Origin: Escherichia coli
GTDB lineage: Bacteria > Pseudomonadota > Gammaproteobacteria > Enterobacterales > Enterobacteriaceae
DNA length: 64,000 nt
Assembly: GCF_024502345.1 (NCBI RefSeq)
Contig: NZ_JALDNN010000001.1
Reading direction: 5' to 3' (one strand)
Positions within the stretch are counted from its first letter, which is position 1. The number at the start of each line of letters is the position of its first letter. The position numbers were made by a program, and so were the translations under genes. Positions 1 to 8,034 of the stretch are shown piece after piece. The notes under the pieces were generated by a model. It was not told where the DNA came from, searched no databases, and saw nothing but the letters and a program-made list of their open reading frames with translations.

Positions 1-624
1 CGTCTGCATCGCATCCAGACCACCACACATTAATACTGTCGGGAACGGGCCATCGCCTTTCGGCATATGCAAAAAGCCGGTGATGGGCGCACCGCCGGGT
101 ACGGTAAACTCCATCTGCCGCATCGTGCCCGGCAGACGCTGGGCGGCCTCTTCATAGGCGCGGTTTGATAAAGCCTGCGCTTGCTCGGCCAGGTCATCTC
201 CTTTCAGATGAGGATAGGCGGCAATGTTGTACAACGTAGCCGCATGCAGCCAGTGTCGACCACTGAGTTGCGGATCTTCTTCCGCACAGGCTTTTTGTTG
301 CCACACCATCGCCTGGGTGGCCCACTCATAAATCCAGTTGCCACCACGGTAGCCAATCACGGTATCGTATAAATCATCATCGGTACGTTCAGCATCGCTC
401 ATCACAATACGTGCCTGGACGTCGAGGATTTCACGTGGGTCAATGCCGCGCCAGATCCACATCAGACGGTTAATCATGCGATACCAGTGAGGGATGGTTT
501 TACCATCAAGGGCCGACTGCACAGGCGGTTGTGCGCCGTGATTAAAGCGGCGGACTAGCGTCGAGGTTTCAGGATGTTTAAAGCGGGGTTTGAACAGGGT
601 TTCGCTCAGGTTTGCCTGTGTCAT
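1..624 (-). CDS. frsA: FrsA esterase (fermentation/respiration switch protein), 5' portion; gene runs off the window start
   Basis: Reverse strand from ATG (cat at 622-624) reads MTQANLSE...; rc of bases 1-60 encodes [20 protein letters not shown]; absent from ORF track because no stop lies inside the window. Confidence 0.85.
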
Positions 625-715
625 GGATGCAGCCTCCAGAATACTTACTGGAAACTATTGTAACCCGCCTGAAGTTAAAAAGAACAACGCCCGGCAGTGC
701 CAGGCGTTGAAAAGA

Positions 716-1174
716 TTAGCGACCGGAGATTGGCGGGACGAATACGACGCCCATATCCCACGGCTGTTCGATCCAGGTATCTTGCGGGATATCAACAACA
801 TAATCATCAACCAGCGGACGACCAGCCGGTTTTGCGAAGATAGTCACAAAATGTGCTTTTGGATACATTTCACGAATCGCAACCGCAGTACCACCGGTAT
901 CCACCAGGTCATCAATAACGATGAAGCCTTCGCCATCGCCTTCTGCGCGTTTTAGCACTTTAAGCTCGCGCTGGTTGTCGTGATCGTAGCTGGAAATACA
1001 AACGGTATCGACATGACGAATACCCAGTTCACGCGCCAGTAACGCACCCGGTACCAGACCGCCACGGCTTACGGCAATAATGCCTTTCCATTGTTCAGAA
1101 GGCATCAGTCGGCTTGCGAGTTTACGTGCATGGATCTGCAACATGTCCCAGGTGACGATGTATTTTTCGCTCAT
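716..1174 (-). CDS. gpt: Xanthine-guanine phosphoribosyltransferase
   Basis: 152-aa [22 protein letters not shown]... with PRTase motif [11 protein letters not shown]. Confidence 0.95.
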
Positions 1175-1434
1175 GTGAAGTGTCCCAGCCTGTTTATCTA
1201 CGGCTTAAAAAGTGTTCGAGGGGAAAATAGGTTGCGCGAGATTATAGAGATCTGGCGCACTAAAAACCAGTATTTCACATGAGTCCGCGTCTTTTTACGC
1301 ACTGCCTCTCCCTGACGCGGGATAAAGTGGTATTCTCAAACATATCTCGCAAGCCTGTCTTGTGTTGACAACATTTTCTGCTAACCCTGTGACCTGCAAT
1401 ACTGTTTTGCGGGTGATCGACAAGGAGACTTAAC

Positions 1435-2892
1435 GTGTCTGAACTGTCTCAATTATCTCCACAGCCGCTGTGGGATATTTTTGCCAAAATCTGTTCTATT
1501 CCTCACCCGTCCTATCATGAAGAGCAACTCGCTGAATACATTGTTGGTTGGGCAAAAGAGAAAGGTTTCCATGTCGAACGCGATCAGGTAGGTAATATCC
1601 TGATTCGTAAACCTGCTACCGCAGGTATGGAAAATCGTAAACCGGTCGTCTTACAGGCCCACCTCGATATGGTGCCGCAGAAAAATAACGACACCGTGCA
1701 TGACTTCACGAAAGATCCTATCCAGCCTTATATTGATGGCGAATGGGTTAAAGCGCGCGGCACCACGCTGGGTGCAGATAACGGCATTGGTATGGCGTCT
1801 GCGCTGGCGGTTCTGGCTGACGAAAACGTGGTTCACGGCCCGCTGGAAGTGCTGCTGACCATGACCGAAGAAGCCGGTATGGACGGTGCGTTCGGCTTAC
1901 AGAGCAACTGGTTGCAGGCTGATATTCTGATTAACACCGACTCCGAAGAAGAAGGTGAAATCTACATGGGTTGTGCGGGGGGTATCGACTTCACCTCCAA
2001 CCTGCATTTAGATCGTGAAGCGGTTCCAGCTGGTTTTGAAACCTTCAAGTTAACCTTAAAAGGTCTGAAAGGGGGTCACTCCGGCGGGGAAATCCACGTT
2101 GGCCTGGGTAATGCCAACAAACTGCTGGTGCGCTTCCTGGCGGGTCATGCAGAAGAACTGGATCTGCGCCTTATCGATTTCAACGGCGGCACACTGCGTA
2201 ACGCCATCCCGCGTGAAGCCTTTGCGACCATTGCTGTCGCAGCTGATAAAGTCGACGTCCTGAAATCTCTGGTGAATACCTATCAGGAGATCCTGAAAAA
2301 CGAGCTGGCAGAGAAAGAGAAAAATCTGGCCTTGTTGCTGGACTCTGTAGCGAACGATAAAGCTGCCCTGATTGCGAAATCTCGCGATACCTTTATTCGT
2401 CTGCTGAACGCCACCCCGAACGGTGTGATCCGCAACTCAGACGTGGCAAAAGGTGTGGTCGAAACCTCCCTGAACGTCGGTGTGGTGACCATGACTGATA
2501 ATAACGTAGAAATTCACTGTCTGATCCGTTCACTGATCGACAGCGGTAAAGACTACGTGGTGAGCATGCTGGATTCGCTGGGTAAACTGGCTGGCGCGAA
2601 AACCGAAGCGAAAGGCGCATATCCTGGCTGGCAGCCGGACGCTAATTCTCCGGTGATGCATCTGGTACGTGAAACCTATCAGCGTCTGTTCAACAAAACG
2701 CCGAACATCCAGATTATCCACGCGGGTCTGGAATGTGGTCTGTTCAAAAAACCGTATCCGGAAATGGACATGGTTTCTATCGGGCCAACTATCACCGGTC
2801 CACACTCTCCGGATGAGCAAGTTCACATCGAAAGCGTAGGTCATTACTGGACACTGCTGACTGAACTGCTGAAAGAAATTCCGGCGAAGTAA
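1435..2892 (+). CDS. pepD: Cytosol non-specific dipeptidase (aminoacyl-histidine dipeptidase) PepD
   Basis: 485-aa ORF, GTG start, MSELSQLSPQPLWDIFAKICSIPHPSYHEE...; M20-family metallopeptidase. Confidence 0.95.
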   Translation: MSELSQLSPQPLWDIFAKICSIPHPSYHEEQLAEYIVGWAKEKGFHVERDQVGNILIRKPATAGMENRKPVVLQAHLDMVPQKNNDTVHDFTKDPIQPYIDGEWVKARGTTLGADNGIGMASALAVLADENVVHGPLEVLLTMTEEAGMDGAFGLQSNWLQADILINTDSEEEGEIYMGCAGGIDFTSNLHLDREAVPAGFETFKLTLKGLKGGHSGGEIHVGLGNANKLLVRFLAGHAEELDLRLIDFNGGTLRNAIPREAFATIAVAADKVDVLKSLVNTYQEILKNELAEKEKNLALLLDSVANDKAALIAKSRDTFIRLLNATPNGVIRNSDVAKGVVETSLNVGVVTMTDNNVEIHCLIRSLIDSGKDYVVSMLDSLGKLAGAKTEAKGAYPGWQPDANSPVMHLVRETYQRLFNKTPNIQIIHAGLECGLFKKPYPEMDMVSIGPTITGPHSPDEQVHIESVGHYWTLLTELLKEIPAK

Positions 2893-2905
2893 TTATTTGA
2901 TTTGC

Positions 2906-2940
2906 TGCCGGATGGCGTTTAATCGCCTTCCGGCAGTTTC
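2906..2940 (+). terminator. Putative rho-independent terminator after pepD
   Basis: GC hairpin tgccggatggcg/tcgccttccggca followed by a T-rich run just after the pepD stop. Confidence 0.4.
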
Positions 2941-2948
2941 ATCCTTCA

Positions 2949-3506
2949 TTATCCTTCGATAAAAGCCATCCCTGTAAATGTCCGTCTCGGGTTGCCACGT
3001 TCAATCTGGTGATGGAACATTCGCCGCTGCGATTTCAGCACCGCGCTATTTTCCTGTTGCTGCTGCTCCAGCTTCCAGGCAATCAGCAATCGTGCCAGCC
3101 GCTTGTTAGCATGCTGACTACGCTCTGACTGAACCTTCACGCTAATACCGGATGCCAAATGCGTGGCGCGTACCGCCGAGTCGGTTTTATTGACATGTTG
3201 ACCGCCCGGCCCCGACGAACGCAACGTCTCATAACGGATTGCATCCGATTGTTCCTGCTCATCAGCGGTAAAACGCCCAATGCCCAGAAACCAGTTTTTG
3301 CGCCCATGATGAGGCCGATACGGACTCGGACAAATCCACTGAATAGTGCCGCACCAGCTTTCGCTTAATGCCCATGCGTTATCGCCATCCAGAGAAACCA
3401 GCGCCGAACGCAGCGTGTCAGAGTAGCGGCCTGTTTCTGTTTCCAGCACCGTTACCGCGACGTCTTGTCGGGTAAAAACGACCAACAGAGAAGAACGCTG
3501 CGCCAA
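2949..3506 (-). pseudogene. prfH: Peptide chain release factor homologue PrfH, N-terminally truncated
   Basis: 185-aa ORF with GGQ motif ([16 protein letters not shown]); first residues do not match a PrfH N-terminus and the ORF overlaps the ykfJ fragment. Confidence 0.75.
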
Positions 3507-3684
3507 TCGGGTAGCCGCGTCCGGGGTGTAAATCTGGCATCCCCACTACGCGCTGCATGTTGGGTAAATTTGCCGTGGTGTGTAATTGTTGGATCGCTAA
3601 ACTCTCGATCCACAGGTCATCAGATGCGATGGTAAATACCGCATCGGATAAGGGAAGAATATATTTGCCCATGTACCATTCCAT
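3418..3684 (-). pseudogene. ykfJ: RtcB-like RNA ligase N-terminal fragment
   Basis: 88-aa ORF MGKYILPLSDAVFTIASDDLW...[17 protein letters not shown] (RtcB N-terminal motif), then runs into the prfH frame. Confidence 0.75.
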
Positions 3685-3989
3685 TTATACTCGTCATACT
3701 TCAAGTTGCATTTACTGCGACTGCGTTCGTTCACCCCAGTCACTTACTTATGTAAGCTCCTGGCGATTCACTCGCTTGTCGCCTTCCTGCAACTCGAATT
3801 ATTTAGAGTATATAAATATAAAAATCAGGAAATGGCAGACGAATCCAGGGCAAGAAAAAAAGAATTAATCCTGGAAAGGTCTGCAAAGAGTCATTGATAA
3901 AGGATTTGTCATGATTTACCTCCTTGCAGTTTGTGGAATAAGAAAACGCGCACATACCAAGCGGGCGTTATTTTCATTGCAAGCTGGAT

Positions 3990-4442
3990 TTAATGTTGCG
4001 GTTTATATCGCATATAAAAATTAGTAAACCACGCTCCCCGGCATTCAACGCGCTGCTGCTTAACTGTCTGAAAACCATAACGTTCAAAAAAGGGTTTTGC
4101 GGTTATGCTGGCATCTACCGTAAGTTCGGATTCAGACTTAATCAATGGTTTTAACAAGGCGCTGGCAACCCCGCGGCGGGTGTATTCAGGGTCAACAAAT
4201 AACATATCGATATAACGTTCAATGCGGGAAATAAAACCAACCGGTTGTGCATTAATGACGGCAACCCGCACTTGTGATTTCGCGAGTTTCTCCTTCCAGC
4301 GAGATTCGTCAATCTGCGCCCAGGCGGCAATTTGTTGTGGAGAATAGTGCTGACTGGAGGTCATCGTAACCGCTCTAATGAAAATAGCGCATAGTTGCTG
4401 AAAATCGCCAGGCTGATAGTTTCTTATTTGTATGTTATTCAT
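3990..4442 (-). CDS. yafP: GNAT-family acetyltransferase YafP
   Basis: 150-aa [24 protein letters not shown]...; start overlaps the dinB stop (ATGA). Confidence 0.9.
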
Positions 4443-5564: not shown

Positions 5565-6455
5565 TTAGCGCGTTCGTTGTGAAAGCACCTGCTGCTTATC
5601 CAGCTTTTGCACCAGCGGCTGCACCACTTTATCCCCATGCTGACCAAAGTATTGATACAGCGTATCGGACGCGCTTTTAGTCAGCACCATAATCTCAATG
5701 CGCCGATTGCCCGCGCTTTGCGGATTTTTGGCATCCAGCAGCATCTGGTCCGCCATTGCGCTTACCTGCATCACTTTATCTTCCGGCATTCCGGCCTCTT
5801 CCAGCACCCGACGAGCCGAAAGCGCGCGGTCACCCGAAAGGTTCCAGTTGTTGTAGATATTGTTTTTGTAGGCCATCGCATCGGTATGCCCGGTAATAAT
5901 AATTTTATTATCGAGCGAGTCGAACACTGGCGCTAACTCCACCAACAGCGTTTTAAAGAACGGCATAATCTGCGCGCTGCCGCGTTCGAACATATTGCGA
6001 TTCTGGTCGTCTTTAATCAGCACGCGTAATCCCTGCGGGACAATCTCCATCTCCAGATTCGCTTCCATATGCGCATCACGGGCAATGGTGTTGATACTGG
6101 TTGCCAGCTCACCAAGCTCGGTGGCGGATTTCTTCTTCAGCAGCGCCGTTTTCTCGTTGACGTCGCGCGCTTTTTTCTCCGTCTCTTCCGGCACCGCCAC
6201 GGTGGCAGGTTTTGGCGGATGAGACGGGCTGATTTTATTTAACGGCGACAGCCCACCACCGTTAAAAATCGACTGCCCGTGCAGCGCGGCGATAATGCTT
6301 TCACGCTCGGATTTACTGACGCTGTTGACAATCAACTTTATCGTCGTCACCAAAGGGGCCGAGCGTATTTCCGAGGTTTCTGCCCGCTTCACCCTGGACG
6401 CGATGCCCGGCAAGCAGATGGCGATTGACGCCGATCTTAACGCCGGGTTGATCAA
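5565..6455 (-). pseudogene. lafU: Lateral-flagellar MotB-like protein LafU, fragment
   Basis: OmpA/MotB C-terminal domain (ITGHTD...NWNLSGDRALSARRV...RRIEIMV); the 5' end of the ORF overlaps the divergent lfhA fragment. Confidence 0.7.
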
Positions 6456-8034
6456 CCAGGCGCAGGCGCAAACCCGGCGTAAAGATGTCGCCAGCGAGGC
6501 CGATTTCTACGGCGCGATGGACGGGGCATCGAAGTTTGTGCGCGGGGATGCCATCGCCGGGATGATGATTCTGGCGATCAACCTGATCGGCGGCGTCTGT
6601 ATCGGGATCTTCAAATACAACCTGAGCGCCGATGCCGCCTTCCAGCAATATGTGCTGATGACCATCGGCGACGGCCTGGTGGCGCAGATCCCTTCCCTGC
6701 TGCTCTCCACGGCGGCGGCGATAATCGTCACCCACGTCAGCGACAACGGCGATATCGCCCATGACGTGCGCCACCAGTTGCTGGCAAGCCCGTCGGTGCT
6801 CTACACCGCTACCGGGATTATGTTTGTGCTGGCGGTGGTGCCGGGAATGCCGCATCTGCCGTTTTTGCTGTTCAGCGCCCTGCTTGGCTTTACCGGCTGG
6901 CGAATGAGCAAACGCCCGCAGGCAGCGCAGGCGGAAGAGAAAAGCCTCGAAACGCTGACCCGCACCATCACTGAAACCAGCGAGCAACAGGTCAGTTGGG
7001 AAACCATTCCGCTGATCGAGCCCATCAGCTTAAGCCTCGGCTACAAACTGGTGGCGCTGGTGGACAAAGCGCAGGGCAACCCGCTCACCCAGCGGATTCG
7101 CGGCGTGCGGCAGGTGATTTCTGACGGCAACGGCGTGCTGCTGCCGGAGATCCGCATTCGGGAAAACTTCCGCCTTAAGCCCAGCCAGTACGCTATTTTC
7201 ATCAACGGCATTAAGGCTGATGAAGCGGATATTCCGACGGATAAACTGATGGCCCTGCCCTCCAGCGAAACCTACGGCGAGATTGACGGCGTGCTGGGGA
7301 ACGACCCGGCGTACGGGATGCCGGTGACCTGGATCCAGCCTGCGCAGAAAGCGAAGGCGCTGAATATGGGGTATCAGGTGATCGACAGCGCCAGCGTGAT
7401 TGCCACCCATGTGAATAAGATTGTACGCAGCTATATTCCTGATTTGTTTAACTATGACGACATCACACAGTTGCATAACCGTTTGTCGTCGATGGCACCG
7501 CGCCTGGCAGAAGACTTAAGCGCGGCGCTGAATTACAGCCAGTTGCTGAAAGTGTACCGCACACTACTGACCGAAGGCGTTTCCCTGCGCGATATCGTCA
7601 CCATCGCCACCGTGCTGGTCGCCAGTAGCGCGGTGACTAAAGATCATATTCTGCTGGCGGCCGATGTACGCCTGGCGCTGCGGCGCAGCATTACCCATCC
7701 GTTCGTTCGCAAGCAGGAGCTGACGGTGTATACGCTGAATAATGAGCTGGAAAATCTGCTGACCAACGTGGTGAATCAGGCGCAACAGGGCGGTAAAGTG
7801 ATGCTCGACAGCGTGCCAGTGGACCCGAATATGCTCAACCAGTTCCAGAGCACGATGCCACGGGTGAAAGAGCAGATGAAAGCGGCGGGGAAAGATCCGG
7901 TGCTGCTGGTGCCGCCGCAGCTGCGTCCTTTGCTGGCGCGCTACGCAAGGTTGTTTGCGCCGGGGCTGCATGTGCTGTCGTATAACGAAGTGCCGGACGA
8001 GCTGGAGTTGAAGATTATGGGGGCCTTGATGTAG
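6295..8034 (+). pseudogene. lfhA: FlhA-like flagellar export protein, N-terminally truncated (Flag-2 remnant)
   Basis: 579-aa ORF begins mid-protein in an FlhA-conserved region (FTLDAMPGKQMAIDADL); about 110 N-terminal residues are missing. Confidence 0.75.

Follow-up and report, generated by a model that had tools for sequence, protein, structure and literature searches.

Does the interval between yafP and pepD in this Escherichia coli strain still encode a working ribosome repair system, or only what is left of one? When intact, the rtcB2-prfH operon serves to rescue and repair ribosomes after colicin E3-type ribotoxins have cut their 16S rRNA between A1493 and G1494: the damaged 70S ribosome is relieved of its nascent peptide by PrfH, after which RtcB2 religates the 16S rRNA of the 30S subunit that has been set free. 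Tian et al. (2022; PMC9304027) found that ribosomes cut at A1493/G1494 are the only ones on which intact PrfH releases peptide and that RtcB2 religates the 30S subunit; they state that neither RtcB1 nor other rescue factors can stand in for the RtcB2-PrfH pair and that the substrates of RtcB1 and RtcB2 are mutually exclusive. A first-pass annotation of the locus studied here had described a PrfH homologue overlapping a short RtcB fragment and had regarded both as deletion remnants. We examined this proposal within the whole stretch of chromosomal DNA that was analysed, 64,000 nt in length (hereafter the window). With a probability of about 95%, we interpret the locus as the inactivated remnant of an rtcB2-prfH operon, a pseudogene pair that is the same allele as ykfJ and prfH of K-12.

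Reading frames and surroundings of the locus

The gene order in the window is gpt, pepD, prfH', 'rtcB2, yafP, dinB, lafU and an flhA-like pseudogene, on the E. coli chromosome. Between pepD and yafP lie two minus-strand ORFs of the lengths described previously, 2949..3506 (185 aa, TTG start) and 3418..3684 (88 aa), which overlap by 89 nt (3418-3506). The features of the locus are as follows.

2949..3470, minus strand: prfH remnant, PrfH codons 32-204 plus the stop codon (2949-2951), without a native start codon
3198..3206, minus strand: GGQ codons (PrfH G120-G121-Q122), intact, residues 101-103 of the ORF, GGCGGTCAA
3418..3468, minus strand: out-of-frame tail of the rtcB2 remnant, 16 residues past P68 and then a stop, prfH DNA read in the wrong frame
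3466..3472, minus strand: deletion junction, a 7-nt imperfect microhomology that reads CCCGACA in the window
3469..3672, minus strand: rtcB2 remnant, codons 1-68 of 379, native ATG at 3670-3672
3471..3506, minus strand: 12-residue N-terminal extension of the 185-aa ORF, rtcB2 DNA out of frame, TTG start
3682..3808 (ends approximate), minus strand: ERIC (IRU) repeat, ~127 bp, core at 3728-3771

The 185-aa ORF scores above the equivalog cut-off of NCBIfam TIGR03072, 'peptide chain release factor H' (E=1.1e-82, 276.4 bits against a cut-off of 166.65), with its residues 13-182 aligned to positions 31-200 of the 200-position profile, and it also matches Pfam RF-1 (PF00472; 2e-24). Together with the GGQ codons at 3198-3206, these matches uphold its description as a PrfH homologue with an intact GGQ motif. 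In a C-terminally anchored alignment with the intact 204-aa PrfH of strain EC19, the remnant carries 2 substitutions over residues 32-204. The 88-aa ORF covers only profile positions 1-69 of 379 in the RtcB family model NF007153 (E=6e-30, 104 bits against a cut-off of 407) and in TIGR03073, 'release_rtcB' (E=1e-28, 99.9 bits against 271.8), and thus falls far under both full-length cut-offs. When intact RtcB2 was used as a tblastn query, its residues 1-69 mapped to 3672-3466. RtcB2 has its native start at 3670-3672 (ATG); the ATG at 3684 is simply the most upstream one. Identity to the RtcB2 of EC19 extends over 66 of the 68 residues of the remnant and ends at residue 68.

NCBIfam places both ORFs in PrfH-specific equivalogs and not in prfA, prfB or generic RtcB. 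In this they differ from canonical RtcB (RtcB1, of the rtcBA operon) and from the class-I release factors RF1 and RF2, which belong to the same superfamilies (Pfam RtcB PF01139 and RF-1 PF00472). The RtcB2 N-terminus is orthologous to that of intact E. coli loci and occupies the same yafP-pepD interval. Judged by these profile matches, the resemblance of the ORFs to the PrfH and RtcB2 families is genuine homology and not chance. The genome closest to the window at this locus is that of strain 88-3493 (99.5% identity over the locus), in which PGAP flags the equivalent prfH coding sequence as 'missing N-terminus'. This strain was also considered as an annotation source for the whole window and was rejected, being collinear with it only to 17,183.

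Within the yafP-rtcB2 spacer, the ERIC repeat is inserted immediately ahead of the rtcB2 start and is separate from the deletion. Its core (3728-3771) agrees at 42 of 44 bases with the ERIC core as given by the ERIC1R and ERIC2 primer sequences; 0 matches were expected by chance. The repeat is full length (~127 bp) in the window and in K-12, present in a short form in intact EC19, and absent from intact S2.

Several further differences among strains were observed around the locus. In the window dinB and yafP overlap directly at 4439-4442; the yafN-yafO toxin-antitoxin pair, which lies between these genes in K-12, is absent here as well as in EC19, S2 and 88-3493, and yafO does occur in some other strains (L007, L009). 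A strong GC-rich hairpin (2904-2936; -27.1 kcal/mol, z=-6.6 relative to shuffled sequences) separates the convergent pepD and prfH; it is plausibly a terminator, shared or bidirectional, and was not flagged in a scan for consensus terminators. Some strains with an intact operon carry two extra genes between prfH and pepD, encoding a metal-dependent hydrolase and a hypothetical protein (L009 at 502-1309, L017 and L020), and their PrfH ends in ...FVAV, not ...FIEG. Farther along, 5565-8034 holds a Flag-2 lateral flagellar remnant in which lafU abuts an N-terminally truncated flhA-like gene (lfhA), as in K-12; in EC19 and S2, whose operon is intact, lafU is longer and motA comes after it. From about 23,600 to 64,000, the window matches other strains that carry clpK and FtsH-like genes, of the heat-resistance or stress-tolerance island type, together with IS21, a type III restriction-modification system and a Tn7-like element (TnsE, Mu-type transposase).

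End points and frame of the deletion

Window positions 2700-4200 were searched by megablast against 5,426 complete E. coli genomes. This 1.5-kb query matched a median of 6 places per genome because of the ERIC repeat. The rtcB2-prfH locus itself was found in essentially all 5,426 genomes, where it falls into two main size classes. The intact loci, for example those of EC19 (L002), S2 (L003) and the ST131 strain EC958 (L019), have an rtcB2 of 1,140 nt (379 aa) and a prfH of 615 nt (204 aa), with a 4-nt overlap between the rtcB2 stop and the prfH start. The intact operon, which is also found in E. coli ATCC 25922 and CFT073 and for which a PrfH structure is available (PDB 7SA4), has a locus and flanks orthologous to those of the window. 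The parts that the window retains, among them PrfH 32-204 with the GGQ motif, are 94-99% identical in DNA to this operon.

Alignment of the window to the EC19 locus opened a single gap, 1,027 bp long. When the window was compared base by base with the EC19 locus on either side of this gap, the junction fell at 3466-3472, and the junction and flank sequences were compared in 20 loci. Intact alleles have a left repeat copy, (T/C)CCGGCA, at rtcB2 codons 67-70 and a right copy, CCCGACA, at prfH codons 31-33. One 1,027-bp deletion between short imperfect direct repeats (CCCGGCA in rtcB2 and CCCGACA in prfH) joined rtcB2 codon 68 out of frame to prfH codon 32. RtcB2 residues 69-379, PrfH residues 1-31 and the overlapping stop and start codons are missing from the window. 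Alignment to intact loci, the check proposed along with the original description, therefore confirms that both genes are deletion remnants, and it attributes them to one deletion and not to two separate truncations.

The length of the deletion also accounts for the unusual appearance of the two ORFs. Since 1,027 is 3x342+1, the remnants are out of frame with one another, and both the 12-residue N-terminus of the 185-aa ORF and the 89-nt overlap follow from this shift. The N-terminus had been called foreign. Twelve residues that do not belong to PrfH are indeed present, but their origin is a frame artefact: mechanical extension of the ORF to the first upstream TTG leads to the 5' DNA of rtcB2 being misread. 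A frame that restores full-length RtcB, which had been suggested as something to look for, is not possible given that the 1,027 bp encoding RtcB2 residues 69-379 are absent. Consistent with this, tblastn with the intact proteins as queries detected no second RtcB2 or PrfH coding sequence in the window beyond the two remnants.

The K-12 allele and its frequency

The locus is already known and ordinary, being the ykfJ/prfH pseudogene pair of K-12. In K-12 MG1655, ykfJ (b0235, 267 nt) and prfH (b0236) are annotated as pseudogenes in the same place, between yafP and pepD, with the same 1,027-bp deletion, the same junction location and residual ORFs of 88 codons and about 166-185 codons. Identity between the window and K-12 is 98.8% over 1,098 bp, with 13 mismatches and no gaps at the junction. 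One of the 13 point differences falls within the junction repeat, where the window has A and K-12 has G. Comparing K12 and O157 with CFT073, 042 and UTI89, Baranov et al. (2006; PMC1586002) reported that ~1,000 nt are deleted in the former two strains and classed both genes as pseudogenes.

Each of the 5,426 complete genomes was scored for a contiguous match to a 121-nt probe with the junction at its centre. The probe was contiguous in 2,689, including K-12 J53, the BL21-derived T7 Express and O157:H7, and the deleted 1,027-bp segment was present in 2,675. The deletion class and the intact class thus cover nearly all genomes and divide them roughly 50/50. The deleted segment occupies a second place in 42 of the 2,717 records carrying it, and 6 of all its places are on plasmids.

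These counts bear on the suggestion that both genes are really full length and that the truncation is a sequencing or assembly artefact of the window. Such an error could hardly recur as an identical, contiguous junction in 2,689 independent complete genomes that include reference strains, and the window follows K-12 from spacer to stop with only 2 gap columns, both at the alignment ends. We consider the artefact explanation refuted and give it a negligible probability.

Another alternative is repeated, independent deletion at the same microhomology, in which case the class would represent recurrent loss and not one inherited event. Three junction haplotypes occur among the deletion alleles: ACCCGACAAG in the window, the BL21-derived strain and O157; ACCCGGCAAG in K-12, L007 and L013; and ATCCGGCAAG in L006 and L014. 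The positions that distinguish these haplotypes are exactly those that vary between the two repeat copies or among the intact alleles, and either mutation or recombination after the deletion, or repeated deletion, could have produced them. Apart from this the end points are the same, however, and the 5' remnant of rtcB2 is nearly monomorphic in 9 deletion alleles (2 haplotypes, 0 synonymous variants), whereas 8 intact alleles contain 10 synonymous variants. This near-uniformity is consistent with one origin and subsequent point mutation or recombination close to the junction, and we regard recurrent deletion as rather unlikely.

Residual coding capacity and function

The ligase remnant keeps none of the catalytic motifs that we located in intact RtcB2. 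Four RtcB motifs were sought in intact RtcB2, and all of them lie inside the deletion: NDIGCG (73-78), GGGNHF (133-138), HSGSRG (168-173) and HGAGR (294-298), the last of which contains His294. RtcB2 His294 and PrfH Q122 are the catalytic residues mutated by Tian et al. (PMC9304027), and mutation of H294 inactivates RtcB2. The remnant is therefore neither full length nor in possession of the metal-binding and guanylylation residues.

The condition of PrfH is more mixed. What its remnant retains is the GGQ domain (residues 108-161) together with R83, H86 and R88, which bind the 3'-phosphate of cleaved A1493. It falls short of the full length of ~204 aa, has no start codon of its own, and lacks the first 31 residues of an rRNA-recognition domain made up of residues 2-98 and 180-204. 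Coupling to an intact upstream rtcB2 is also absent, because the 4-nt overlap falls inside the deleted 1,027 bp. The deletion thus deprived PrfH of its start codon, of translational coupling to rtcB2 and of the beginning of its rRNA-recognition domain. Baranov et al. (PMC1586002) argued that the missing part includes a central beta-strand of domain 2 and predicted misfolding.

The state of this remnant speaks against a pseudogene: it is a remarkably clean, 173-codon open frame with the GGQ motif, R83, H86 and R88 intact and only 2 amino acid changes from an intact allele. It could be proposed that a truncated PrfH (~32-204) is still made from an internal start and has some residual or new ribosome-associated activity, leaving the locus half dead. 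By loose analogy with ArfB, such a protein might act as a stand-alone GGQ peptidyl-tRNA hydrolase. If a truncated PrfH were retained in this way, the open frame and the mostly synonymous polymorphisms would be explained. The persistence of the allele in about half of E. coli genomes fits this proposal, and a reviewer of Baranov et al. (2006; PMC1586002) pointed out that expression had never been checked. On the other hand, we saw by eye no recognisable Shine-Dalgarno sequence ahead of the candidate TTG (3506) or a GTG start, and the native start, the coupling to rtcB2 and part of the rRNA-recognition domain are all deleted, with the misfolding predicted by Baranov et al. counting further against an active product. 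A scan of 2850-4050 gave no consensus sigma-70 promoter, a result that is uninformative on real transcription.

Polymorphism over prfH codons 33-204 was compared between 9 deletion and 8 intact alleles. Nonsynonymous to synonymous counts were 12:37 in the deletion alleles, matching the 13:36 in the intact alleles, and at face value the former ratio suggests purifying selection on the remnant. The raw counts cannot tell whether constraint is relaxed, however, because most variants are common to both classes. The pattern of sharing points to variants that are ancestral or that recombination on the pepD side has transferred, and the excess of synonymous variation would then predate the deletion or have been imported. 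Variants private to single deletion alleles number 7 nonsynonymous and 6 synonymous (Fisher p=0.09; binomial against the neutral expectation p=0.06), which in this small sample of 17 alleles is a weak, non-significant shift towards neutrality.

A second deletion provides stronger evidence of ongoing decay than these polymorphism counts. In L006, L007 and L014, a frameshifting deletion of 169 bp with ATGC microhomology (window-equivalent ~3115-3279) removes the GGQ segment; the window has the first deletion only. A junction-spanning probe was unusable for counting this event since BLAST joins pieces 169 bp apart, and we scored it instead as absence of the internal GGQ segment. This segment is missing from 671 of the 5,426 genomes (about 12%), and its flanks are present in 5,410. 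Assuming that the second deletion always occurs on the background of the first, as it does in 3/3 examples, the GGQ segment is gone from about 24% of deletion carriers, which counts against a retained role for the truncated protein. In addition, an IS1 element was seen upstream of the remnant in one strain.

Published experiments also argue against a functional truncated PrfH. BW25113, which carries the truncated operon, is sensitive to colicin E3, and knockouts of its remnants (prfH and ykfJ) have no phenotype with this toxin; the intact genes on a plasmid protect against colicin E3, and plasmid-borne prfH alone does not (PMC9223846). Overall, we judge an active truncated PrfH to be very improbable and favour the interpretation that both genes are inactive, in agreement with the description of K12 rtcB2 and prfH as 'presumably inactive' owing to the deletion (PMC9304027).

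Because RtcB2 69-379, PrfH 1-31 and the coupling stop and start codons are missing, the function established for the intact pair (PMC9304027, PMC9223846) is not expected here. The earlier supposition that the strain probably lacks this function holds for this locus. The truncated allele confers no protection from colicin E3 in BW25113 (PMC9223846), and we infer that the present strain behaves like BW25113. As a discovery the finding carries little weight: the K-12 annotation has included the pair for decades, a 2006 paper already described the deletion, and in 2022 the allele was shown to lack function. The genome counts, with the 50/50 split and the ~12% of genomes that have the second deletion, are a small addition to what these papers state. 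For the biology of the strain, this locus would be predicted not to protect it, by way of RtcB2-PrfH, from toxins of the ColE3 or CdiA-CT(ECL) type. Like K-12, the B lineage (for which a BL21 derivative was checked) and O157:H7, the strain is predicted to be unable to repair 16S rRNA cuts of the colicin E3/CdiA-CT(ECL) type by way of this locus.
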